From positions 85,635-149,634 of the forward strand of contig JAFDZW010000001.1 of assembly GCA_018266755.1 (NCBI GenBank): a DNA stretch of 64,000 bases, in the 5' to 3' direction. Source of the stretch: Bacteroidota bacterium. Lineage in GTDB: Bacteria > Bacteroidota > Ignavibacteria > Palsa-1295. This document shows positions 8,997-48,580 of this stretch, piece by piece. A model generated the notes under the pieces. The model saw only the letters and a program-made list of their open reading frames with translations, was not told the DNA's origin and did no database searches. Position numbers and translations under genes: made by a program. Within the stretch, counting starts at the first letter, position 1. Each line of letters opens with the position of its first letter.

Positions 8997-10547
8997 ATGC
9001 CACCTAAACCGGCACGTACACCCCTCCTGAGAGCGATCCAGCGAATCGCCTCGCAAGTCCTTGAAAAGCAGCAACAGTCTCAAGATACTGGTGGACATAT
9101 TGTCAGCCGGCGCGCTTTTTTGGCAGGATCTGCGGCCCTAACAGCCGGTCTGCTCGTCGGTGACCAAGTAATACTTGGTGCCGGAAAATCCAACCCTCGA
9201 ATAGTTATTATTGGGGCGGGAATGGCAGGTCTTAATGTCGCCTGGACGTTGAAAAAGGCTGGGGTCGCCTCTACACTTTATGAGGCCTCTGGAAGGGCCG
9301 GGGGACGGATGATGTCCGTTAGTAATGCCCTCATTCCGGGAGTACGGACGGAATTTGGCGGGGAATTCATCGACACCAACCATCGAGATATACACTCGCT
9401 TGCTAGTGAATTTAGCTTAAAATTGCTCGATCGGCGGAATTCGGCGATAAACGAATTAATTCGGCAAGCCTATTTTATAGACGGAAAAGTATATTCGGAA
9501 GAAGATGTCGCCGAGGCACTCAGACCATTGCTGCCGACGCTGCAATCCCATGCATCGGTCCTGACATCTGTCCCTACCTTCGAAGCACCCGGTGCTGCCG
9601 AAATACTGGACAAGACCCCACTTTCCCGCTATCTGGCCGAACTCCGTTTGCCTAATTGGCTCTGGAAGCTTCTCGAAGCTGCGTTCGTCACGGAGTATGG
9701 GCTTGAATTGGGGAAACAGTCGGCCCTCAATTTGCTGATCACCATCCCCACCGTCAATGACGACGGGTCGGTATCGATGTTCGGCGACAGCGACGAACGC
9801 TATAAGATTGCCGGGGGCAATGCAAGACTCCCAGAAGCAATTGCATCGCGATTGAATTCCCAGATCCGCTATTCAAGTGTTCTGAAGTCCGTCAGTATGA
9901 AGGCGGGTCGGTATCAACTTGAATTCGTTACCTCCGGCGCCAGTCAAACGACCGAGGCCGACATCGTCGTCCTCGCGATCCCGTTTAGCGTCCTTCGAGG
10001 CGTGACGCTTGACCTGGACCTCCCGGATTGGAAAACCCGTGCGATCCGCGAGCTCCCATACGGGACGAACACGAAAGTTATGATGGGCTTTTCGCGTCGC
10101 ATCTGGCGCGAAAAGGGGTTCGTCGGCGAAGTCTTTAGCGACGAGCAATTTCAGCTTGCCTGGGACAATACCGAACTCGAGCATTCACCGGCTGGGGCCT
10201 TAACGATCTATACCGGCGGTGATGCAGGCGTTGAGGCGACGAAGATAAAGCTGCAGGTCCAAGTCGAGTCATATCTCGAATTGTTAGAGAAAATATTCCC
10301 CGGCATTTCAAACACTCGAAATTCAAAACAGGCGCGGATGAATTGGATCGACAATCCATTTTCAAAGGGGAGCTACGCCTCCTACGGCCCCGGACACTGG
10401 ACGTCCATTCGCGGGGCGGAATTCAAGCCGATCGGCAATCTGCATTTTGCAGGTGAACACTGCAGCCTCGATTTTCAAGGCTTTATGAATGGCGCCGCCG
10501 AAACCGGTCGGCGCGCTGCCGAGAATATTCTCGCTTCCCTGAAGTAA
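8997..10547 (+). CDS. Flavin-containing amine oxidase (FAD-dependent, Tat-exported)
   Basis: Dinucleotide-binding motif RIVIIGAGMAGLNVAWTL...EASGRAGGRM, amine-oxidase C-terminal region, and an N-terminal twin-arginine signal SRRAFLAGSAALTAGLLVG. Confidence 0.7.
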   Translation: MPPKPARTPLLRAIQRIASQVLEKQQQSQDTGGHIVSRRAFLAGSAALTAGLLVGDQVILGAGKSNPRIVIIGAGMAGLNVAWTLKKAGVASTLYEASGRAGGRMMSVSNALIPGVRTEFGGEFIDTNHRDIHSLASEFSLKLLDRRNSAINELIRQAYFIDGKVYSEEDVAEALRPLLPTLQSHASVLTSVPTFEAPGAAEILDKTPLSRYLAELRLPNWLWKLLEAAFVTEYGLELGKQSALNLLITIPTVNDDGSVSMFGDSDERYKIAGGNARLPEAIASRLNSQIRYSSVLKSVSMKAGRYQLEFVTSGASQTTEADIVVLAIPFSVLRGVTLDLDLPDWKTRAIRELPYGTNTKVMMGFSRRIWREKGFVGEVFSDEQFQLAWDNTELEHSPAGALTIYTGGDAGVEATKIKLQVQVESYLELLEKIFPGISNTRNSKQARMNWIDNPFSKGSYASYGPGHWTSIRGAEFKPIGNLHFAGEHCSLDFQGFMNGAAETGRRAAENILASLK

Positions 10548-10554
10548 CCCCAAC

Positions 10555-10733
10555 TACGGCGTCTTTTTCGACGAGCGGTTTACGTTGCGGATCAACATGC
10601 TCACGCCCCAAAGGATGAGCATTGCAGGGAAGATCACGTCCCAGAGCGGGAGGTCGACGCCGAATACATTACGAAGCAGGATCGTGCCGCCTACGACGAC
10701 GAGTAATATTCCCCAAAACAGACTACCGGACAT
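10555..10733 (-). CDS. Small 2-TM membrane protein, paralogous to the N-terminal membrane region of the adjacent LiaF-like protein
   Basis: 59 aa, below the track cutoff: MSGSLFWGILLVVVGGTILLRNVFGVDLPLWDVIFPAMLILWGVSMLIRN... This resembles residues 20-60 of ORF 10758-11327, the LiaI/LiaF-type transmembrane region. Confidence 0.4.
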
Positions 10734-10757
10734 AGATACAATCTCCTTTCTCTCGAG

Positions 10758-11327
10758 TTAGAACGTGGTGGTTGACGAAGTATCCGGGTAGATCTTCAGA
10801 TCACCGAAGACCACATCGCATCGAAGATCGACGAACGGCTCGCCCTCGCGGTAGCCGGGCGATGTGTAGCGGCGCTCGCCGAAGGTCACGAGGTTGCCGT
10901 CCGGCAGACGCCCGCTGCCGAAGGCAGACGATATTTTAATCTTCATCGGAGTGTTCGGGTTTACCGTCAACGTCGCGCTGGCAAAGACCGCATCGACATC
11001 GACACGCGTACCCGGCTTCGCATTGCGCAGGTCGTACTCCGTCTTGCCGAAGACCACGCTGTGCTTGCTGCCTCCGTTGACCGTCGTCTGCGTATGATTG
11101 AACAGCACCGTATTATCGTCATCGGCCGGCGATCCCTTCGACCCAATGAGCAGGCTCACACCCCACGAGATGATAATCACCGGGATGATCACCCCCATTA
11201 CAGGAATATCGAGCTTGAAGACATTCTTCAGGATCATGAGAATGCCGGCGAGGATCAGTATCCCGGCCCAATAGGTCTCGCGAAAGAGGAAATTCATGAT
11301 GATGTTGGTTTTTGCAAAGATACGCAT
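10758..11327 (-). CDS. LiaF-like cell-envelope stress protein (N-terminal 2-TM plus C-terminal DUF2154-like beta domain)
   Basis: N-terminal ILILAGILMILKNVFKLDIPVMGVIIPVIIISWGVSLLIG membrane region, followed by a beta-rich domain with the LiaF-type pattern (GDLKIY, VDVDAVFASATLTV). Confidence 0.5.
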   Translation of the reverse strand: MRIFAKTNIIMNFLFRETYWAGILILAGILMILKNVFKLDIPVMGVIIPVIIISWGVSLLIGSKGSPADDDNTVLFNHTQTTVNGGSKHSVVFGKTEYDLRNAKPGTRVDVDAVFASATLTVNPNTPMKIKISSAFGSGRLPDGNLVTFGERRYTSPGYREGEPFVDLRCDVVFGDLKIYPDTSSTTTF

Positions 11328-11396
11328 ACCCCGCCAAGATTGTAACAGCCCCGAACCCGCATTTCGCCCAATGTCCCATTTTCTTACTCCCCACCG

Positions 11397-11522
11397 CAGT
11401 AGGACGGACTCTCAGTCCGTCCATCTTCCCACACACCACAGTAGGACGGACTCTTAGTCCGTCCACCCTTCCCACACACCCAGTAGGACGGACTCTCAGT
11501 CCGTCCATCTCTCCCACACCAC
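11397..11522. repeat. Tandem array of three 42-bp units, each with a perfect 9-bp inverted repeat (GGACGGACT-CTC-AGTCCGTCC)
   Basis: Units start at about 11397, 11439 and 11481 and are near-identical, including the inter-palindrome portion (tcttcccacacacc). There are no unique spacers. Track ORFs 11119-11859(-) and 11312-11551(+) merely translate the repeats (VGRTLSPS x3). Confidence 0.8.
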
Positions 11523-11545
11523 CCACCTTGATCCTCGCCCCACAC

Positions 11546-11758
11546 CCATAGGTGCCCATCAACCCAGTCACCCCCCAGCTAACTAATTGATTTCCCGACA
11601 TATCACACAGCACACACCACCCAACCACCTCAAATTCCGGCTTCCTGCGACAACCACGATCCCGCCGCGCCAACGCACCCCCACCATAGGTGCCCATCAA
11701 CCCGGTCACCCCCCAGCTAACTAATTGATTTATCGACATATCACACAGCACACACACC
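11546..11758. repeat. Pair of ~75-80-bp direct repeats (ccataggtgcccatcaacccRgtcaccccccagctaactaattgattt..cgacatatcacacagcacacacc), period ~138 bp
   Basis: Copy A about 11546-11628 and copy B about 11684-11758, roughly 95% identical. The region is non-coding. Confidence 0.75.
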
Positions 11759-11992
11759 AACCCGCCAGAAACAGAAACGTCCGCCGAAGCGGACGTTTCT
11801 CTGACGATCTGTCTCCCGAGCGGGGGCGCATTATTCATACCACAAATATACGGAAACATGTCCTTTTTAGCAACAGGCTAAGTGATTATTTTAGAAATTT
11901 AACAAAAGAAGCACCTACCAATCAGCCTCCCTCTCCTTGAAATGAGCTTGTCCTGAGCTTGCCGAAGGAAGAGGGCCGGGGTGAGGTCAGCC

Positions 11993-12019
11993 CAGTAGGA
12001 CGGACTCTCAGTCCGTCCA
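11993..12019. repeat. Solitary fourth copy of the GGACGGACTCTCAGTCCGTCC palindromic element
   Basis: cagtaggacggactctcagtccgtcca is identical to the core of the tandem units at 11397-11522, about 470 bp downstream. Confidence 0.75.
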
Positions 12020-12151
12020 TCCTACCGACGACACACAATTCCCATGAGAAAGAGGTTGCGATGATCACAGTTCACATGCCTCCCAGCGGACGAAACGAAT
12101 TCGGCAATTCAGGGCAGAACCTTGATGCCCCATGGAAGGGGCTTGTCAACC

Positions 12152-12379
12152 CTATGCAAAGAAATCATCTTTATTCAAGCCCATCAGACGCAATAAGTTC
12201 TTTACCACGAACTCAGGGACGGGATCGATGTGGCTGGAAAATGTGAGGGGCCGGGTAAGGTCGCTTCTGGTCCAATGCTCATGCCCGCCCGTTGTTCGCG
12301 TGCACTTGCAACCCTGCTTTTTCAGGAATGCTCTGAGTTCGTCGGGAGAAATGTTCTTGAGTTTCCGCGTTGACATCAA
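12152..12379 (-). CDS. hicA: HicA-family mRNA interferase toxin
   Basis: 75 aa with the HicA/YcfA core (ELRAFLKKQGCKCTRTTGGHEHWTRSD...HIDPVPEFVVKNLLRLMGL). It overlaps the upstream hicB by 4 nt. Confidence 0.7.
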   Translation of the reverse strand: MMSTRKLKNISPDELRAFLKKQGCKCTRTTGGHEHWTRSDLTRPLTFSSHIDPVPEFVVKNLLRLMGLNKDDFFA

Positions 12380-12762
12380 GCATACTGCGGGATTCTTATT
12401 GGTTGGCGAATGACCGTATGCGGGACCGACTCAATGATCTGTTGAAAGTGCGGATTCCTCTCCTGAAGCGTTTCGAATGACGGCGGAAATGCTGTCTTCT
12501 TCGTCTTGCCGCTAATGCTCCACCCAAGTCTGGCAAGTTCTTCGAAGATCGTCTTCTTTGCCATAGTATAGCGAACAAACTCTTCGAGTGCGATCTTGAA
12601 TGATTCTAACGCCTCGGACTCCGTCTTGCCATAACCGGACATGTCCATCGCAGCAGAATAGACAATATACGTCCCGTCCTCCTGGAAGCTGATGAGGTTC
12701 AGATTCGTCTCGACCGCAACACCCTGTTCCTTGAACTGCGCGTTTACCCTGTAGTTGCTCAT
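12376..12762 (-). CDS. hicB: HicB-family antitoxin
   Basis: Start MSNYRVNAQFKE (ATG at 12762, internal to track ORF 12376-12828). HicB N-terminal UPF0150-like domain (ISFQEDGTYIVYSAAMDMSGYGKTESEALESFKIALEEF). Confidence 0.6.
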   Translation of the reverse strand: MSNYRVNAQFKEQGVAVETNLNLISFQEDGTYIVYSAAMDMSGYGKTESEALESFKIALEEFVRYTMAKKTIFEELARLGWSISGKTKKTAFPPSFETLQERNPHFQQIIESVPHTVIRQPIRIPQYA

Positions 12763-12901
12763 TGAGCCCTTCGATAGAGATTGCTTACTGATAACAAGGT
12801 GATTTTTGGAATTGTGCCGACAGCACACCCAAGGCCCACCGAGGCGCTGTACTTGCAGCCCAGGGTTTAGGCCGCAGGCCTAAACCCTGGGTCAAGTTAG
12901 A

Positions 12902-14170
12902 TCAGAAGGGGATGATGTCTTTGATCCGGTCCAAAGGAAATTCCTTTCCAAAATACAGATAGTAGCTTGGGGAAAGCAGCGAATTCCCGTAGACCTCTCC
13001 CCCTAGCTTCAGGCCATACTTCAATTCCATCACGCGGAACCTGACCTGGTAGAACCACGACTTCGGGTCGAAGTTGATGCTGTAGTTGTTGAGGCTTCCG
13101 TCGAAGTCGGTAGACTCGATATAGTCGGTGCCGCTTTGCCAACAGTAACCGGTTACTGCTGTGATCTTGCAAGCGACATCGGCAGTCGATAGATCCAAGA
13201 GCAGACCGACCCCAAGCTCGATCTGCGAAAACCGTGAAGTATATCTGTTTTCAAGCTGGCGTTTGCGCCCAACGATCGTGTCCTTCCCGAATACGTCAAT
13301 GCTGTCGAGGAGGACGAAGTTGGCAGTCGAGCTGGAGGTATACGTGCGGTAGCCGAGATGTGGAAACGTTAAGTACACACCTTTAGCGAGCCCCTCGAGC
13401 AGGTTCAACGCTATGTTGTTCTCGGAAGATGTTGAGCTACGCGAGACTGTGCTGGGAAGGGCGTACCAAACATCGGAGTTTGCACCTGAAGTAGTATCGA
13501 AATGACGTACGTTCACGAAGTATGAATCCCGAAGCAGGTCCCTCTGGAGTGAGTCAGCTGACTTGGTTTGGACTTTTCCCGCCGTAGAGACCACCCAACC
13601 ATCGACTCCCATGGACGTGCTAACTCCGAGAATAGGCAATGCAACGTCTTTCCAGACGATCGGCATATAGAATGTGCCTTCAACGTAGGGAGAGGACACA
13701 GAAACGCTCTTGTTCGCAAAATCGAGTGCGCCTCCCACCGTAATAGCTCCGATCGACGCACGATACTCCGACTCCTTTAGATCGGCATTCTTGTCCACAA
13801 GTTCGACGAGCTCCTGGTCGATTGCTTTGCCCGAATTATCTCGAAGAACGAGCATGAACTTGGTGTTCAATTTTGCCTTGCCTTTGATCGTGAGCGGCAG
13901 CGAGTACTCCATCGCTCCGTTCGCTTTGGCGATGACCACCGATGCAGGAGGTGAGAACGCAAAGTCCACGTCGGGTTTTGCATCCACCGGAAGTGCCGCT
14001 ATATTCAGAGTATCATCCGTACTTTGGCTCGAAGGCGCAACGAACCGGATCATGATGGTCCGGTCTGTGTCTGCGACAGCGACCGGTAGTGTTCGTTGTT
14101 GGAAGTGGATACCCTGTGCTTTCACCGAGCCCGCCGCCGCAAGGAGAATCATCAGATAGATGTGTTTCAT
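12902..14170 (-). CDS. Secreted hypothetical protein, probable outer-membrane beta-barrel
   Basis: Signal peptide MKHIYLMILLAAAGSVKAQG (ATG at 14170). Beta-rich with alternating hydrophobics and a C-terminal ...DIIPF ending in an aromatic residue. No family recognised. Confidence 0.45.
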   Translation of the reverse strand: MKHIYLMILLAAAGSVKAQGIHFQQRTLPVAVADTDRTIMIRFVAPSSQSTDDTLNIAALPVDAKPDVDFAFSPPASVVIAKANGAMEYSLPLTIKGKAKLNTKFMLVLRDNSGKAIDQELVELVDKNADLKESEYRASIGAITVGGALDFANKSVSVSSPYVEGTFYMPIVWKDVALPILGVSTSMGVDGWVVSTAGKVQTKSADSLQRDLLRDSYFVNVRHFDTTSGANSDVWYALPSTVSRSSTSSENNIALNLLEGLAKGVYLTFPHLGYRTYTSSSTANFVLLDSIDVFGKDTIVGRKRQLENRYTSRFSQIELGVGLLLDLSTADVACKITAVTGYCWQSGTDYIESTDFDGSLNNYSINFDPKSWFYQVRFRVMELKYGLKLGGEVYGNSLLSPSYYLYFGKEFPLDRIKDIIPF

Positions 14171-14207
14171 AGTAAGTGATGTGATTGTTGATGACAAAAC
14201 GAAAAAA

Positions 14208-17200
14208 CTACTCCATCCTCAACCCCGCGATCTCCTTCACCGCTTTCACCGTTTCGAGGCTGACCGTGATGACTTGTTTGATGAGGCGTAGGATATAGCC
14301 CTCGTCATCCTCGCGGTTCGGGTCGTTGGTGATGCCGCTGCGTTTGTCGGTCGAGACTTGGTATTGGTCGATCACCCACTCGAGCGCGCTGCGGTTACCG
14401 AGTTTGTAGTCGAACACTTCCGGCGGGATGCCGCGCAGCGTCAGGTCGGCGTTGTAGATGAGCGACGCTTTGTCTTTCGTCAGCTTCATCTTCTCCACCC
14501 GCAGGTTCAGGACCGAACCCTTGCGCCACTCTTCTTCGAGGTCGAACTCCTTCGCAGACTCGTAGTTCACGTGCAGATCGGCAAGATGCTTGCCAAGCTC
14601 CGAGATCCGGAAAAAGTCCGGCGAGATCGGCACGCGCGGTAACTCCCGGCGCAAGTTCGCCGCATACTTCGTCCGATACTCAGGATGATGCAGAATGCCG
14701 TAGATGTAATAGAAGATGTCCCACTTCGTGACCTCCTTCTTGGTCTTCAGCTTTGTTTTGAATTGCTCAAGCGCCCAATCGGTGATGTTCTCTTTTCTGT
14801 TGGTGCCATCTTCGTTGTAGGTGTAAAACGCGAAGCACTGGCTATTTGGAGTTAGCTGTACATCCGGCAAGATGTTTGTCGCGAGCGCCGAGAAAGGCGA
14901 ACTCATTCCAATGCCGTGCAGACTTATCACAAGATTTTCCTTCTCCGATTCCGGGGTAGGCAATATCCGTGTAAACTGGTAGGTTCGCTCTATTAATGCC
15001 TTCTCAAAGTAGACGAATTGACGTTCAAAGGGCCTCTGTAGTACCACCCGGACATTTTCATCATCAACAATCAGCTGCTTACCTTTGCGCAATTTGTTCT
15101 TAAGGCCCTCGCTCCACGCAATCTTCCTGTCATCATAGTCAGTTGTGGGATCAAGTTCTAGCCGCTTTCCAGCATTAGCGAGCTTGATCAAGTGACGATT
15201 GAACTCATCGGTGAGCGTTGTAACATTCTTGAGTAATGCGCCTTCGTCGAAATTATATATCCATTGATCCCGATTTGTCTTTATTCCACTCGAGTAAATC
15301 TTGAAGATGGTACCACTACCACCAGCCGCCTTGCCTTCCTTAGTCCCCATCGCTAGGAGGCTGTCAAACCCTTCAATCATTCCGGCTGTCAACCAATTCC
15401 CTTTAGCACTTGGCTCCAAACGTTGCCAATCAATGCCCGTGACGTCAACTGCAGTGCTCAGAGCAGAATACTTTTCGCTCTTGCGAGCGAATTCATCAGT
15501 CCTCGAGTAATAAATTGACGCTGTTGTGCCCTTCTTATGAGACTTCCGCCGGACAAGGATATTTATGCTAACGCCTACCTGGATCCCAAATACGTTATGC
15601 GTTGTGCCCGACAGTTTAGGGTTCTTGCGGACATTCCCTCCGAGGTTGAAAATAAATATCTCATCAAACTCTTCAGATAGCTGCTTCCGCATGCCATCGA
15701 AAGCGACATCTTCAAGAAAGCTAGAATTTGAAACGAAAGAGATGACGCCCTCTCCATTAGCTATAACTCTGTCGCTCGCAAAGCGAAATGCCTTTACATA
15801 TGGATCAGAAAGTGCAATCTTGTTCGTTGCCCGACTTTCCTTTGAGTAAGATTCTGATACACGCTTGTCAATAACCGGATACTTACGATTCTTATTGTTA
15901 TCGTTCTCATTCACTTGGCCTGCATTGTATGGTGGATTGCCAACAATGACAAAGATTGGTGATTGCTTCTGGCGTTTGACGCGCTCCGTATTTTCTGTAG
16001 AGAACAGGGCTCCCTGGTCCGGCTCCGCAAGCTCGAACGTATCCACCAGACAGATCCCTTCGAACGCCTCATACTTCCCGACCTCGGAGTAGTACTCGTG
16101 CTCGATGTTCATGCTTGCGATGTAATAGGGCAGGAGCATGACCTCGTTGCAGTGGAGTTCGTTCTTGTATTTATGAGGTAATGCGGTGCGCTTGATCTCG
16201 CGCATGATGCGCATGATGAAGTTGCCGGTCCCGACGAAGGGGTCGAGGATATGGACGTTCTTATCCGAGAGCGAGCGGTCGAACTCGGTCTTGAGGATAT
16301 GCTCGACCGAGCGCACCATAAAATCGACGATGGGCTGCGGCGTATAGACGATGCCGTGCGTATCCGCGACCTTCACCGCGAAGCCCTGGAAGAACTTCTC
16401 ATAGACGGTGTTCAGGAAGTGCTGCTTCTGGCTCCAGTCGGTGATGGATTTCGCGCGATTTTCGAGCGCGACATAGAAATGATCGAGCGGCGCGAAGAAC
16501 TGATGGCGGTTGAAGCTCTGCGAAGTGAGGGCGTCGATGACGGTCTCTATCTCGGCGGCGATGACGTTGCGGCGCAGGAACTCGGCGTTATCGAACACCG
16601 ACGAGAATATGCGCGACGTGAGCAAGTGCTGGACCAGCATTTCCTCAATCGCAGGATCGGCAAGGTTCGGGTTGATCGAAGCACGGCAGAGCTCGGCGAA
16701 GGTCTTGAATGCCTCTTTGAAGCGAGTATTTGTTTTCTTCTCCTCCTCGATCATCGAGATAAGCTTCTCGGCTGATTCCGGGATGCGCTGTTTGAACTGC
16801 GCGACGAGTTCTTCCCAATCGGCCTGTTCGTCGGCCTTGTAGCCGAAGAACGTTTCGAGGCATGCGACGAGGCGTTCGGGCTGGGTCAGGTCGTAGGTAT
16901 CGACGAGGATGCCGTCCTGGTACAGTACAGCAAGATCAGGTTGCTGAAACAGAATGTTACTCTTGGGGTAGCCCTTTTCAAACTTCGCTTTGATCTCCTT
17001 TTTCAGATCATCTTGCGTGTCCTTTGCTTCCCAGAAACCCATGGGGGTCGTCATGGCATCAGTCAACGCACCGTCAACCGAACCCTTGTTCTTATTCGCG
17101 AGTGTGATCGTATATTCTTCGGTGAGCGTCCATTTCAGCTTCTTGGCGTAAAAGGAGAGCAGGTCGGCGAATGCCCCGCGTACAGAGGTCTCTTTGGTTA

Positions 17201-17276
17201 CGCCGTTCTTCGAGTAGATCGCGAGCGCAGCGTAGTAATTCTTAATGGGCTTATGGGACGGCTTGATGTCGAGCAT
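14208..17276 (-). CDS. Single-polypeptide type IIG/IIL restriction-modification enzyme (MmeI/PglX-like N6-adenine DNA methyltransferase with N-terminal nuclease-like region and C-terminal specificity domain)
   Basis: 1022 aa. SAM motif I ILDPFVGTGNF, catalytic motif IV VIVGNPPYNAGQ, and a C-terminal region with ILHHPEYRTKYAANLRRELPRVPI, the conserved block shared by MmeI-family and BREX PglX proteins. No separate restriction or specificity genes and no other BREX genes nearby. Confidence 0.6.
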   Translation of the reverse strand: MLDIKPSHKPIKNYYAALAIYSKNGVTKETSVRGAFADLLSFYAKKLKWTLTEEYTITLANKNKGSVDGALTDAMTTPMGFWEAKDTQDDLKKEIKAKFEKGYPKSNILFQQPDLAVLYQDGILVDTYDLTQPERLVACLETFFGYKADEQADWEELVAQFKQRIPESAEKLISMIEEEKKTNTRFKEAFKTFAELCRASINPNLADPAIEEMLVQHLLTSRIFSSVFDNAEFLRRNVIAAEIETVIDALTSQSFNRHQFFAPLDHFYVALENRAKSITDWSQKQHFLNTVYEKFFQGFAVKVADTHGIVYTPQPIVDFMVRSVEHILKTEFDRSLSDKNVHILDPFVGTGNFIMRIMREIKRTALPHKYKNELHCNEVMLLPYYIASMNIEHEYYSEVGKYEAFEGICLVDTFELAEPDQGALFSTENTERVKRQKQSPIFVIVGNPPYNAGQVNENDNNKNRKYPVIDKRVSESYSKESRATNKIALSDPYVKAFRFASDRVIANGEGVISFVSNSSFLEDVAFDGMRKQLSEEFDEIFIFNLGGNVRKNPKLSGTTHNVFGIQVGVSINILVRRKSHKKGTTASIYYSRTDEFARKSEKYSALSTAVDVTGIDWQRLEPSAKGNWLTAGMIEGFDSLLAMGTKEGKAAGGSGTIFKIYSSGIKTNRDQWIYNFDEGALLKNVTTLTDEFNRHLIKLANAGKRLELDPTTDYDDRKIAWSEGLKNKLRKGKQLIVDDENVRVVLQRPFERQFVYFEKALIERTYQFTRILPTPESEKENLVISLHGIGMSSPFSALATNILPDVQLTPNSQCFAFYTYNEDGTNRKENITDWALEQFKTKLKTKKEVTKWDIFYYIYGILHHPEYRTKYAANLRRELPRVPISPDFFRISELGKHLADLHVNYESAKEFDLEEEWRKGSVLNLRVEKMKLTKDKASLIYNADLTLRGIPPEVFDYKLGNRSALEWVIDQYQVSTDKRSGITNDPNREDDEGYILRLIKQVITVSLETVKAVKEIAGLRME

Positions 17277-17379
17277 AATGGGTACAAATATAAGTTACGG
17301 CGGGAGAATGCTTATCAATATACGGGGTAGAGGGCGTAGCGATCAGGCCGGGAGTTCGGCTACGGAGGGAAAACGAGAG

Positions 17380-17469
17380 CGGAGAGGGAGGGATTCGAAC
17401 CCTCGATAGCGCTTTACACACTATGACGGTTTAGCAAACCGTTGCCTTCAGCCACTCGGCCACCTCTCC
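17380..17469 (-). tRNA. tRNA-Ser (anticodon GCT)
   Basis: The reverse complement reads GGAGAGGTGGCCGAGTGGCTGAAGGCAACGGTTTGCTAAACCGT...GAGGGTTCGAATCCCTCCCTCTCCG. Anticodon loop TTGCTAA, long variable arm, 7-bp acceptor stem. Confidence 0.8.
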
Positions 17470-17589
17470 TGCGCTATCAGTTGTTGAAGCGAAGAGTAAA
17501 CCTCGCTTTTCTTGGAGTCGTTCCGAAATCCGTGGCTGGCGTCGGGTCGCCCAACTCATCCGCGCCCGGCGCTGTTGAGTGGGCTACGT

Positions 17590-18267
17590 ATGGCTACGCG
17601 AACCGTTGAATTGCGCACACTTGGGCCAACCCCGTATCGGCAGGTGTGGGACGTGCAGCACCGAATCTTCGACTCTCTCTTGGATGGGTCCGGGAATGAT
17701 ACGCTTATCCTGTGCGAACACAAGCCGGTCTTCACGCTCGGCCGCGTGACCGATGTGACGAACGTCCTCTTTAGCGATGCCGAACTTGCGAAGATCGGCG
17801 CGGAGAAGTTCGAGATAGAACGCGGTGGCGACGTGACATTCCATGGCCCCGGGCAGATCGTTGGATACCCGTTGTTGAATTTGGCGCACTTCAAAGAAGA
17901 TCTTGGCTGGTATCTGCGCTCGCTTGAAGAAGTGATTATTCGCACGCTAGCAACCTACGGCATCGAAGCATTTCGTGTTGAAGGACGTACCGGAGTGTGG
18001 GTAGGGAAGCCGCCGTTCGAAGAGAAGATATGCGCCATCGGTATCAAGGCATCGAGGTGGTGCACGATGCACGGGTTTGCGTTCAACGTGAATACCGATC
18101 TTCGGTACTTCGACTATATCGTTCCGTGCGGGATCAGTGATCGGAACGTGACGAGCATGAAGAAGTTGTTGGGGAGAGACGTTGATATTGCCGAGGTCCG
18201 CGACCGACTCAGCCGCGCATTTGAAGAGGTGTTTGACGTAAGACTTGTCACTACGTCAGATGAGTGA
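17590..18267 (+). CDS. lipB: Octanoyltransferase (lipoyl(octanoyl) transferase)
   Basis: Start MATRTVELRTLGPTPYRQVWD (internal Met of ORF 17512-18267). LipB motifs LCEHKPVFTLGR, RGGDVTFHGPGQIVGYPLL, KICAIGIK. Confidence 0.75.
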   Translation: MATRTVELRTLGPTPYRQVWDVQHRIFDSLLDGSGNDTLILCEHKPVFTLGRVTDVTNVLFSDAELAKIGAEKFEIERGGDVTFHGPGQIVGYPLLNLAHFKEDLGWYLRSLEEVIIRTLATYGIEAFRVEGRTGVWVGKPPFEEKICAIGIKASRWCTMHGFAFNVNTDLRYFDYIVPCGISDRNVTSMKKLLGRDVDIAEVRDRLSRAFEEVFDVRLVTTSDE

Positions 18268-46063: not shown

Positions 46064-48580
46064 TCAATATCCGATCAGTTCGAACCCTGCCCAATACAGA
46101 GGTTCGTCGTTGCCCATTCGTTTGTGCACGACAGAGCGCATCTTCAACTGCGCGGCACGCAGCGCCGCAGGTTTCGAGTCGCCTTGCAGCAATCGTTTAT
46201 AGAAAATCGTCATCAACTCTGCCGTTTCGCGATCCGGGATTCGCCAGAGGCTCATCAGAACGTTGCGTGCACCGGCTGTGCGAAGGGCCCGAGGAAACCC
46301 GAATACACCTTCGCCCGGTTCGATCGTCCCTCTGCCACTCTCACAGGCAGAGAGTGTGACGAGATCGGTCCCGTACAGATCCAAATACATCGCTTCAAGA
46401 CCGCTGACAACGCCATCGTTCGAGGGGTCATCGCTGCCGCGTCGAAGTGTTTTGTTTGCGCCGCTGAGGTAGAGTGCACATTCGAGCAGATCGTCGGTGA
46501 TCGTATTGCCTTCGGAGCTATCCGGTCGAAATGTCGCATGTGTTGCGATATGAACGATCGAGCGATCACGGAGCCGGTCGAGATTCTGTTCACTCGCGTC
46601 GGAACCAAGAAATGATTGCACATCCCAATGAGCACCCCGAAAAATCGCGCCGATGTTCGATGCCTCTGATTTCGTTGCATTGAGCTCTTGCAGCATGCCT
46701 TTCTCCCGTGCGGTCGGCAGCGCTGATACGACAGAGGTACGGACATTTCCATACGCGGGGTCGGCAAAGATCGTGATGGACTGTGTCCGTTGTGACGGAA
46801 CATCACGGGCTACGTCGCCAGTATTTGTAAGCGTGGCGATCTCATAGCGATCGATGACTTGTGTGCGATCGTCGATGGGTAGCATCGGAAGTGACAACTG
46901 CGAATAGATCCCATCGGGTGAGATGTACACTGTGCCGACATGCGGTAATAATTCGGCGATCGGAGCCCATATGAGTTTGCTTACAATCTTCAGCGCCTCG
47001 CGATGTTTGGTGCCAGGCACAAGTGCCAGATAATATGCACGGAGCATAGCGGGGTCTTCTAACGTCGTTGCATCTCCGATCACGGTGCTCTGCGGAGCAA
47101 TACTATCGTGAGGCGAGACCACGAATGCGGCGTAGGTAGCGGTGTCGGTCTGCCGTTCGCCGTCGAAGTATGGAAACCGTGCGATCTCGATTGCAACGGA
47201 CTCCGGTTGCAATCGGTCGCGGACGTTGTTCCACGAGACGCGCGGGAATTGAAGCGCCTTGCCGGCTCGTGCGGAGCGTCTGACAAGTTGTTTCTGAAGT
47301 CGCTCGATCGCGACATCGAGACTGTCGCTGCCGAAGAGCGGTTTTGCAATGAGCAGACTGTCGCCACTGCGTAAGGCCGAGCGCCGTGCAGCAAGGATGG
47401 CGATGTGTGCTATGAGTGAACTTGCAGTCGTGTCTCCCGAACGAGAGAGCGATTCCCGATTGGCGGCAAGGCTGGTGACCGCCGCTGCTTTCTCGAACAA
47501 CAACCAATCGTACGCAACCGCCGATCCTGCCGGATAGATGGAACCGGTGCGAACCGCAGTACTGAACACGCGACCGCTCGTGCGATATATTTCACGGAGA
47601 AATTCTAATCGCTCCCGCTCGCTCGTGTAGCTGAAGTTGACCTGCGCCGCGTCCTCATAGATCGAGAGTGCGCGGTTGTACGCTGCAAATGCGGCATTGG
47701 GACGATTCTGTAACTCGCAAATGCTGCCGTCGACCAGTTGCGAGAGTGCACGTGTTCCGTAGGATCGGTCGCCGGTTCGCATGAGATCGTTCTCGCAGGC
47801 GCGGATATCCGGTTCTGCGGAATCGGGGTCAGATGCGATCGCTCTGGTTCGAGCTCGTGCAAGACGAATGGAGGCTCGGAGTTCGAGTCGAGGTTCGTTT
47901 GCAGCGGAGAGGAGTTCTAATGCCGTCGAATAGATCCGCTCCGCATTGTGATACCGTCCTTTCTCGAATGCAATATCTCCGGCAAACCGTTGGATGCGAA
48001 TTGATTCGGTGCTACCGTTCCCAAATCCCGACATGATTGTCGCCGAAAGGCCGCTGGCAAGGTTTTCGGCTTCTTGTGCATTTCCGCTGCGAAGCGCATA
48101 CTCGGCCGAAGCAAGCGTGGCAAGGGCTGTGAACTTGTTGTCGGCGCCAAGTTCGACACGATATGCACTCACTTGTTCATTCGTTGCTCGAACAGCGTCG
48201 CGGTAGCGTCCTTGTTCCGAATATAGCCGGGCGAGTCTGCTCCACGCAGAGGCGACAATAGGATGGTGTGCGGAATAGAGGCGTGTGTTCGCGGCGATTG
48301 CACGTTCCAGCGCTTCTTCGGCTTCGCCGTATTCTGCTTGCTCGAGCGTGAACACCCCAAGCATGTACTCGCAGTATGCAGCAACGGAGTCGTTGGGTTT
48401 GGATGAATGGTGATCCGCTAAGATCGAGCGTACGTAGTATTCACCATTGTGAAGGTCGGCAGCATACAGAAGGGAGTCGCAATGACGTGTTACAACGGCA
48501 AGCGCGGGTGGTCCTTGTGCCTGAGTCGGAAGGGGAGTCGAAACGAAGAACAGAAATAATAGGAGTACTCGATCGATCAC
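46064..48580 (-). CDS. Secreted TPR-repeat CHAT-domain (caspase-like) protease
   Basis: Signal peptide MIDRVLLLFLFFVSTPLPTQAQG. About 350 aa of TPR-like helical repeats. C-terminal CHAT domain with the His/Cys dyad context IVHIATHATF...LVTLSACESG and the terminal YWAGFELIGY. Confidence 0.7.
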   Translation of the reverse strand: MIDRVLLLFLFFVSTPLPTQAQGPPALAVVTRHCDSLLYAADLHNGEYYVRSILADHHSSKPNDSVAAYCEYMLGVFTLEQAEYGEAEEALERAIAANTRLYSAHHPIVASAWSRLARLYSEQGRYRDAVRATNEQVSAYRVELGADNKFTALATLASAEYALRSGNAQEAENLASGLSATIMSGFGNGSTESIRIQRFAGDIAFEKGRYHNAERIYSTALELLSAANEPRLELRASIRLARARTRAIASDPDSAEPDIRACENDLMRTGDRSYGTRALSQLVDGSICELQNRPNAAFAAYNRALSIYEDAAQVNFSYTSERERLEFLREIYRTSGRVFSTAVRTGSIYPAGSAVAYDWLLFEKAAAVTSLAANRESLSRSGDTTASSLIAHIAILAARRSALRSGDSLLIAKPLFGSDSLDVAIERLQKQLVRRSARAGKALQFPRVSWNNVRDRLQPESVAIEIARFPYFDGERQTDTATYAAFVVSPHDSIAPQSTVIGDATTLEDPAMLRAYYLALVPGTKHREALKIVSKLIWAPIAELLPHVGTVYISPDGIYSQLSLPMLPIDDRTQVIDRYEIATLTNTGDVARDVPSQRTQSITIFADPAYGNVRTSVVSALPTAREKGMLQELNATKSEASNIGAIFRGAHWDVQSFLGSDASEQNLDRLRDRSIVHIATHATFRPDSSEGNTITDDLLECALYLSGANKTLRRGSDDPSNDGVVSGLEAMYLDLYGTDLVTLSACESGRGTIEPGEGVFGFPRALRTAGARNVLMSLWRIPDRETAELMTIFYKRLLQGDSKPAALRAAQLKMRSVVHKRMGNDEPLYWAGFELIGY

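Follow-up and report, generated by a model that had tools for sequence, protein, structure and literature searches.

A stretch of 64,000 nucleotides (nt) from a Bacteroidota bacterium (assembly GCA_018266755.1, contig JAFDZW010000001.1, positions 85,635 to 149,634 of the forward strand; hereafter the window, numbered from its first letter) contains a gene for a 1022-residue restriction-modification (R-M) protein that lies beside a tRNA-Ser gene and is followed by a gene for a putative secreted beta-barrel protein. An earlier note on this DNA, made from the letters alone, had reported both open reading frames (ORFs), several motifs of the larger one and the tRNA-Ser(GCT), and all of these were recovered at the same positions:

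14208..17276, minus strand: enzyme ORF of 1022 amino acids (aa) with an ATG start, from the ORF list
12902..14170, minus strand: barrel (cargo) ORF, 422 aa from its ATG, or 431 aa (nine residues more) from an in-frame upstream TTG at 14197
17379..17469, minus strand: tRNA-Ser, anticodon GCT (ARAGORN; Rfam tRNA, 61 bits)
12859..12891, minus strand: hairpin with a perfect 15-bp stem, 10 nt past the cargo stop codon (RNA fold -34.9 kcal/mol, z = -6.0)

The enzyme and barrel genes are co-directional and separated by a gap of 37 nt. The tRNA gene shares their orientation and is separated from the enzyme start codon by 102 nt, so that the immediate neighbours of the enzyme gene are this tRNA upstream and the barrel gene downstream. 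In the 1022-residue translation, the motifs ILDPFVGTGNF, NPPY and HHPEYRTKY...LPRVP occupy residues 343-353, 447-450 and 863-883, respectively. The enzyme ORF stands far above chance through its matches to Pfam Type_ISP_C (4.6e-98) and to the restriction enzyme DrdV (6e-192), and the reality of the barrel ORF as a gene is backed by four remote homologues (best E-value 3.8e-9) and by a genome-typical GC content at third codon positions (GC3) of 0.63. In the source database, where both genes are placed on a 643-kb contig, the enzyme is named "MAG: N-6 DNA methylase [Bacteroidetes bacterium]" (MAG, metagenome-assembled genome) and the barrel protein "hypothetical protein JSS75_00360".

An Rfam scan of positions 10500-17600 found only the tRNA at the gathering score, together with one opposite-strand match that overlaps the tRNA below threshold. 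When the 3' end of the tRNA-Ser gene was searched for as a direct repeat, the only other match was a second tRNA-Ser gene; no att-like repeat was found, and no integrase is present. No tRNA adjoins the enzyme gene in the eight other homologous loci scanned, and in locus L001 a tRNA-Lys lies about 2.4 kb downstream.

Architecture and family of the enzyme

Homology to proteins of solved structure and to Pfam families divides the enzyme into four putative domains:

16812..17276, minus strand: N-terminal PD-ExK endonuclease domain, approximately residues 1-155, from the alignment to DrdV
16437..16799, minus strand: helical connector ("coupler"), residues 160-280 (Pfam ISP_coupler, 4.9e-18), where homology to LlaGI and LlaBIII begins
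15372..16427, minus strand: gamma-class N6-adenine methyltransferase domain, approximately residues 284-635 (Pfam N6_Mtase, 6.9e-14, residues 284-467), with limits transferred from DrdV residues 295-635
14292..15308, minus strand: C-terminal target-recognition domain, residues 657-995 (Pfam Type_ISP_C, 4.6e-98, profile positions 2-339 of 342)

The closest solved structure is a 1029-residue chain (7lo5_A/7lvv; phmmer E-value 6.1e-192), whose residues 16-1025 align with residues 20-1017 of the query, and 7LO5 has been identified as DrdV (PMC11842806). The next structure matches, LlaBIII and LlaGI, cover only residues 160-1017 with the single sequence (E-value about 1e-149), and the homology starts at residues 554 and 718 of LlaGI and LlaBIII, past the motor. 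Since the alignment to these two proteins starts no earlier than residue 158-160, the N-terminal domain is of the DrdV type. A profile of 15 family members searched against the PDB reached 8.7e-272 for DrdV, 2e-213 for LlaGI and 5e-207 for LlaBIII. Among the PADLOC models, REase_MTase_IIG (PDLC03621, 1024 positions) is matched end to end, as are the C-terminal two-thirds of a 1646-position profile. Judged by these homologies, the 1022-aa protein is a member of the DrdV lineage of type IIL/IIG enzymes and stands outside the MmeI/PglX group. The family label "MmeI/PglX-like" that had been proposed for it is therefore not sustained: Pfam recognises Type_ISP_C and ISP_coupler, the C-terminal block that had been regarded as shared by MmeI and PglX (HHPEYRTKY...LPRVP) falls within Type_ISP_C, and the only solved relatives found are DrdV and LlaGI/LlaBIII.

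The N-terminal region had been described as nuclease-like, with a check for a PD-(D/E)xK motif suggested. In DrdV, D64 and E79 bind metal, K81 is the PD-ExK lysine whose mutation abolishes catalysis, and K94 and E25 complete the nuclease site (bioRxiv 10.1101/2021.01.06.425610). The N-terminal 100 residues of the enzyme and of DrdV form an ungapped alignment offset by four positions, and all five active-site residues have counterparts, so that E29, D68, E83, K85 and K98 are the candidate catalytic residues, equivalent to DrdV E25, D64, E79, K81 and K94. These five positions are invariant in an alignment (A1) of the query with 14 relatives (15 sequences) of 56-75% identity, as are motif I (D345-P346-x-x-G349-T350-G351) and N447-P-P-Y450 of the methyltransferase. 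With its architecture and its catalytic and cofactor motifs complete, the enzyme is apparently intact.

The neighbourhood of the gene bears on whether such a protein acts alone. Downstream genes were collected from 125 homologous loci with enough DNA, as co-directional ORFs starting between -60 and +150 nt of the enzyme stop codon, and such an ORF of at least 100 aa is present in 54 of them. The commonest Pfam family among these neighbours, Uma2, occurs in four of the 54 and no family recurs in more than four; the others are each seen once and include Mrr and DUF559 nucleases as well as a tRNA synthetase and ribosomal protein S4. Individual examples include an Mrr-type nuclease 10 nt downstream of the enzyme gene (L001) and a deaminase/HATPase_c_4 protein in the downstream position (L002). 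When an earlier set of 57 downstream ORFs was clustered, 40 were singletons. Since no neighbour is recurrent, the reading of the enzyme as self-contained stands, and it agrees with the proposal of the earlier note that this is a self-contained type IIL/IIG system. The single chain combines a PD-ExK nuclease with a gamma-class N6-adenine methyltransferase and a recognition domain, needs no separate R or S subunit and carries no motor domain.

These data also bear on the possibility that the enzyme is instead a displaced PglX/BrxX, which would need BREX partners elsewhere, or an MmeI-family protein, which would need the MmeI architecture. Such proteins share with it the general layout of a nuclease or other N-terminal domain, a gamma-class methyltransferase and a recognition domain, and all these groups methylate in a strand-specific manner (PMC11842806). 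Pfam MmeI_Mtase also gives a match, which at 19.3 bits (7e-4) remains below the cut-off of 27 bits, whereas MmeI_N, MmeI_hel, MmeI_TRD and MmeI_C have no Pfam match in the enzyme. No BREX model occurs among its 19 PADLOC matches at E-values of 0.01 or less, and the 15-member profile that finds DrdV, LlaGI and LlaBIII retrieves no PDB match to MmeI, BpuSI or BrxX even at E-values of up to 1. The best structure match is thus DrdV rather than any BREX PglX, and BREX components (the earlier note had reported that brxA/B/C, pglZ and brxL are missing) are absent from all 13 window ORFs of at least 450 aa. Furthermore, the enzyme has an intact DrdV-type nuclease site, of which PglX, to our knowledge, has no counterpart. 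Taken together, a BREX or MmeI origin appears extremely improbable.

A second alternative follows from the C-terminal three domains. The coupler, methyltransferase and recognition domains are close to those of LlaGI and LlaBIII (E-value about 1e-149), and many homologues bear database names such as "type ISP restriction/modification enzyme" and "predicted helicase", so that the protein might be the methyltransferase-recognition half of a type ISP-like system with a separate helicase-nuclease, or a decayed ISP enzyme retaining methyltransferase activity only. By its predicted domains, the enzyme does share three of its four domains with type ISP proteins and fails their defining features, the motor and the Mrr nuclease. 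It carries its own N-terminal DrdV-type nuclease with invariant catalytic residues, Pfam finds no helicase/ATPase (SF2) domain in it, and no helicase gene is adjacent, the neighbours being the tRNA upstream and the barrel gene downstream. No helicase family is among those listed for the downstream neighbours of the 54 homologues, and DrdV itself cuts without adenosine triphosphate (ATP) (the DrdV paper). This alternative is accordingly considered very unlikely, although slightly less so than a BREX or MmeI origin.

The DrdV-type family is large. At least 8000 protein clusters were retrieved, all at E-values below 1e-20, most of those listed being 1015-1070 aa long, which makes the query length usual for the family, and 252 family matches were confirmed in a species-representative genome set. 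Hosts include Bacteroidota-lineage MAGs, Ignavibacteriota, Chloroflexota, Cyanobacteria, Poribacteria, Acidobacteriota and others. Database labels of the homologues are inconsistent ("type ISP restriction/modification enzyme", "predicted helicase", "DNA helicase"), and the evidence presented here backs a single label, DrdV-type ATP-independent type IIL enzyme. Both the family and its mechanism are already known, as is the ease with which single-chain R-M enzymes are re-targeted, and the gene had already been loosely annotated; nothing in this assignment would surprise a restriction-modification specialist.

Divergent modules in the sister locus

The closest relative of the enzyme, P0003 (75% identity), is encoded on a 4547-nt contig (L086) that blastn identifies as the same chromosomal locus in a related organism. 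This contig holds only the cut 3' end of tRNA-Ser, at its start, and corresponds to the window as follows:

window 17407-15842, L086 1-1565: 88% nucleotide identity (95% over the first 140 nt), starting inside the tRNA-Ser 3' end
window 17407-17267, L086 1-140: 95% nucleotide identity
window 14841-14207, L086 2563-3197: 89.6% identity, 3' part of the enzyme gene
window 12892-12857, L086 4308-4343: 89% identity, hairpin
window 11930-11797, L086 4414-4547: 92.5% identity, flank past the hairpin

Comparison of the two alleles reveals two divergent tracts within the enzyme gene:

14760..16016, minus strand: central mosaic module, approximately residues 421-839, of which 14842-15841 cannot be aligned at the DNA level
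17007..17186, minus strand: second divergent tract, in the nuclease domain, approximately residues 31-90 (extending to about 120), third-codon-position identity 0.37-0.57

In the central tract, blastn homology to L086 stops at 15842 and restarts at 14841. Amino-acid identity to P0003 is 87-100% over most of the protein, 77-80% in the tract margins and 20-60% at residues 481-809. In a codon alignment of the two genes, third-codon-position identity is 0.21-0.47 over approximately residues 421-839 and 0.67-1.0 in most of the rest. The base composition changes at the same place in both alleles, with GC3 of 0.38-0.56 in the tract core versus 0.70-0.88 over most outer parts; the other window genes have values of 0.54-0.72.

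The side chains with which DrdV contacts bases are N448, Q485, K486, K488, N548, R554, D564, N673, R721, Y764, D803 and K807 (the DrdV paper). All of them save the invariant NPPY asparagine map inside the swapped tract (DrdV 485-807), so that the unit of exchange, as delimited by these alignments, coincides with the predicted DNA-reading module. Five of the mapped contact positions differ between the alleles (N485/L, K486/V, A488/Q, Q807/H and N811/D), and because of these differences the two alleles probably recognise different DNA sequences.

The nuclease-domain tract is of a milder kind. Its flanks have third-position identities of 0.87-0.97, amino-acid identity is 70-90% and the catalytic residues are kept. 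In DrdV, the nuclease domain contacts the recognition-domain extension of a neighbouring subunit (bioRxiv 10.1101/2021.01.06.425610), and the nuclease-domain patch may have been exchanged together with the DNA-reading module.

No donor of the middle module was found among the matches, the best identity in the tract core being about 66%. Three DrdV-family paralogues occur together in one Caldilineaceae chromosome (L015, L016 and L048) and a further three in one Poribacteria MAG (L057, L064 and L079), so that genomes with three such genes contain potential internal donors for a module exchange of this type. The allele pair represents a natural experiment that shows where such an enzyme can be cut and rejoined, and could help in engineering new specificities.

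The predicted barrel gene and its proposed cargo slot

The gene downstream of the enzyme, which had been described as encoding a secreted beta-barrel protein, is predicted to encode the following features, all on the minus strand:

signal peptide: cleavage predicted after VKA18, before Q19
approximately residues 27-126: Calx-beta-like beta-sandwich (AlphaFold2, five-sequence alignment)
approximately residues 141-412: roughly 10-stranded outer-membrane-type beta-barrel (long beta-hairpins in the AlphaFold2 model)

The AlphaFold2 model built with a five-sequence alignment has a predicted local distance difference test score (pLDDT) of 64.7 and a predicted template modelling score (pTM) of 0.48; a single-sequence prediction was unusable (pLDDT 33.5), and the alignment was used instead. 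The hydrophobic N-terminus ends in A-Q in the four full-length members of the protein family, an ending typical of Bacteroidota substrates of signal peptidase I (the "Q-rule"), and three of the five members have a C-terminal Phe. Signal peptide and model thus back the description as a secreted barrel at moderate confidence, and with the same confidence the cargo can be modelled as an outer-membrane barrel preceded by a Calx-beta-like domain. Ten-stranded outer-membrane barrels are known from OmpT, OpcA and Legionella Dot/Icm porin I, and the cargo shares 7-11% sequence identity with these proteins and with Calx-beta domains. No evidence of an omptin catalytic site was found in it, comparison of the model with the viral structures of BFVD gave only generic weak barrel matches (TM-score, template modelling, of at most 0.45), and no annotated family was found to pair a Calx-beta-like domain with a small barrel.

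The family is very rare. Neither the protein nor its homologues have a match in Pfam, NCBIfam, PADLOC or PHROGs, and an exhaustive HMMER search of 1.84 billion representatives returned only four relatives, with 24-31% identity over the matched stretches and E-values of 3.8e-9 to 4.7e-4, giving five members in all. A word-indexed search found only the query when started from the single sequence and one already-known homologue when started from a profile. Nothing ties this family to restriction.

At the sister locus, homology ends within 2 nt past the TAG stop of the enzyme gene and resumes about 10 nt before the hairpin. Between these points, where the window carries the barrel gene of 1.27 kb, the slot at L086 3209-4302 contains a 178-aa ADP-ribosyltransferase-like gene (PF03496, 6.9e-10; PF01129, 5.9e-8) and a 186-aa ORF with no match. 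The 178-aa protein weakly resembles the XopAI effector as well as phage virion proteins in their C-terminal parts, and the end of its gene overlaps the 186-aa ORF; the two may form a toxin/immunity pair. The tRNA-Ser(GCT) locus is thus a small variable spot, at which the same enzyme gene in a sister genome has another middle module and another cargo. A 75-aa HicA-type toxin (Pfam HicA_toxin, 3e-6; PHROG "toxin", 7e-8) lies in window 12152-12762 on the minus strand. A 128-aa ORF comes before it, with a TGA stop overlapping the toxin ATG, and is by position only a candidate antitoxin; as a HicB it has no match in Pfam, NCBIfam, PADLOC, PHROGs or the PDB. The segment of about 0.9 kb that carries HicA, between the hairpin and 11930, is missing from L086 and is therefore a third difference between the loci.

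The hairpin occurs once in the window, which rules out a dispersed repeat, and is kept at L086 4308-4343 after the different cargo. It probably terminates transcription of a two-gene unit and marks the right-hand edge of the cargo slot. In our reading, the enzyme gene, the cargo gene and the hairpin make up one transcription unit, and we infer co-transcription of the two genes; a scan for promoter and terminator consensus sequences was uninformative on this point, with counts not above the shuffled expectation.

Co-transcription raises the possibility that the barrel protein is a functional accessory in a two-gene defence operon, for example a surface protein that alters phage adsorption. The shared strand, the 37-nt gap with no terminator-like site and the strong hairpin after the second gene are all compatible with this, and elsewhere in the enzyme family the downstream gene is sometimes a defence-type nuclease (Mrr in L001, Uma2 or DUF559). 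However, when all five barrel-family members served as tblastn queries, the 163 other loci retrieved, some 160 of them with DrdV-family genes, gave no homologue. Only one barrel homologue, P0123, has a readable context: its neighbours are a truncated phage-type integrase and a DUF1353 gene, and no restriction gene occurs in the vicinity. In the sister locus, unrelated cargo occupies exactly the same slot, and downstream neighbours in the family extend to housekeeping genes such as those for a tRNA synthetase and ribosomal protein S4. An accessory role is consequently judged quite unlikely, and the barrel gene is most likely incidental cargo in a replaceable slot, not a conserved partner. The adjacency that the earlier note had called unusual for an R-M gene is explained by the variable cargo slot seen in L086 and in the comparison of the 163 loci. 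A broader proposal would regard the tRNA-Ser locus as a miniature exchange platform for modules and cargo. The enzyme gene would retain its conserved outer frames while recombination replaces the middle module (about residues 421-839) along with the nuclease-domain patch, and independently of this a slot delimited by the enzyme stop codon and the hairpin would accept unrelated genes carried on the transcript of the enzyme. In its furthest form, the slot would collect second-line anti-phage functions and the present barrel would modify or mask a phage receptor; this is a speculative extension, for which the chances seem low.

Overall, the locus very likely comprises a DrdV-family type IIL (IIG) R-M enzyme at a variable tRNA-Ser(GCT) spot, together with a barrel gene that is probably co-transcribed with it and functionally unrelated to it. 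Several points weigh against this interpretation. The activity and specificity of the enzyme are deduced from its sequence. The interfaces that license cleavage in DrdV include K8/R12, D15, E41 and R46, as well as D224, E230 and D231 versus K251 (bioRxiv 10.1101/2021.01.06.425610). Read from the phmmer alignment to DrdV, the nuclease-nuclease interface residues D15, E41 and R46 correspond to A19, K45 and T50 in the query and the central-dimer residues E230 and D231 to the arginines R235 and R236, while D224 (D229) and K251 (R257) are kept. Because of these changes, the oligomer geometry that licenses cleavage may differ; they lower confidence in the geometry of the assembly, not in family membership. 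The barrel model, at the pLDDT and pTM given above, is of only moderate confidence. The sister comparison involves one locus on a 4.5-kb contig, and since no other metagenome contig is closer than 69% amino-acid identity, the synteny rests on that contig. Finally, the 37-nt gap, the shared strand and the hairpin fit co-transcription, so that a functional link of the barrel protein to the enzyme is possible.

Several features elsewhere in the window were also recorded. The region 11392-12040, C-rich on the plus strand (GC skew -0.27) and apparently non-coding, contains repeats at 11392-11525, 11536-11617, 11674-11755 and 11998-12018. They include a 42-nt tandem repeat in 3.1 copies, each with the palindrome GGACGGACT-CTC-AGTCCGTCC and with a fourth solitary copy 500 nt away, and an 82-nt direct repeat in two copies at 91% identity, with no Rfam match. 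A 246-aa ORF across these repeats (11119-11859, minus strand) is probably spurious, save for its start (MNNAPPLGRQIVRE), which is kept in L086. The region 5000-9000 has a low GC content (0.43-0.49 versus about 0.54) and begins right after a tRNA-Ser gene (GGA, 5363-5450, plus strand). Its ORFs at 5488-6012, 6054-7583 and 8411-8854 have no Pfam or PADLOC match, and members of a 52-nt repeat family (5974, 8346 and 8816) extend over the ends of small ORFs (...GAGATGAACTAA); the stretch may represent a distinct island made up of paralogous small genes. An 838-aa TPR-CHAT protein (46064-48580, minus strand; CHAT, 2.3e-53), whose caspase-like protease architecture is frequently associated with conflict systems, is encoded about 30 kb from the enzyme and is unrelated to it.

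Proposed mechanism and comparison with known systems

The mechanism proposed for the enzyme is transferred from DrdV; the domain order, the catalytic and cofactor motifs, the absence of a motor and the lack of a conserved partner gene are observed here, whereas enzymatic activity, multi-site licensing and a target sequence are predicted. A short asymmetric DNA site would be bound by a single chain, in the cleft separating its methyltransferase and recognition domains, and the target adenine would be flipped out, while the chain's own nuclease domain would leave the bound DNA untouched. By the default route, the adenine would be methylated on one strand with S-adenosylmethionine, protecting the host, and the enzyme would depart. 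Capture of further site-bound molecules would instead build a dimer and then a trimer or tetramer, in which N-terminal PD-ExK domains donated in trans would be paired over the scissile phosphates, and both strands would be cut at a fixed distance downstream, restricting foreign DNA. Neither ATP nor a motor nor a partner gene would be needed.

Among known systems, MmeI and PglX/BrxX resemble the enzyme in consisting of one chain, and in the one-strand adenine methylation of an asymmetric site and the easily changed specificity that are predicted for it. They differ in having no detectable sequence relationship to it beyond the generic methyltransferase core. PglX works only inside a BREX gene cluster, and the window, surveyed at ORFs of at least 450 aa, has none. 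MmeI also possesses an N-terminal PD-ExK nuclease and needs multiple sites (the DrdV paper).

LlaGI and LlaBIII, which are type ISP enzymes, are closer, with coupler, methyltransferase and recognition domains that are homologous over residues 158-1021 and Pfam families that carry the ISP name. Type ISP proteins, about 1400-1580 aa long, combine an Mrr-like nuclease at the N-terminus with a RecA-like ATPase motor, and their cleavage comes after translocation and collision, whereas the query has neither the motor nor the Mrr-like nuclease and is about 400-550 aa shorter. According to the authors of the DrdV study, that enzyme and the type ISP enzymes have methyltransferase and recognition domains that are "highly similar" and share a common origin.

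DrdV of Deinococcus wulumuqiensis (PDB 7LO5 and 7LVV) differs from the query in that the host of the latter belongs to another phylum (a Bacteroidota-lineage MAG) and in the base-reading residues (485-807), which are largely different, so that the site of the query is very unlikely to be CATGNAC. In other respects the two agree closely: they have similar lengths (1022 versus 1029 aa) and the same four-domain order, the five nuclease residues, motif I and NPPY are conserved, and both dispense with an ATPase.

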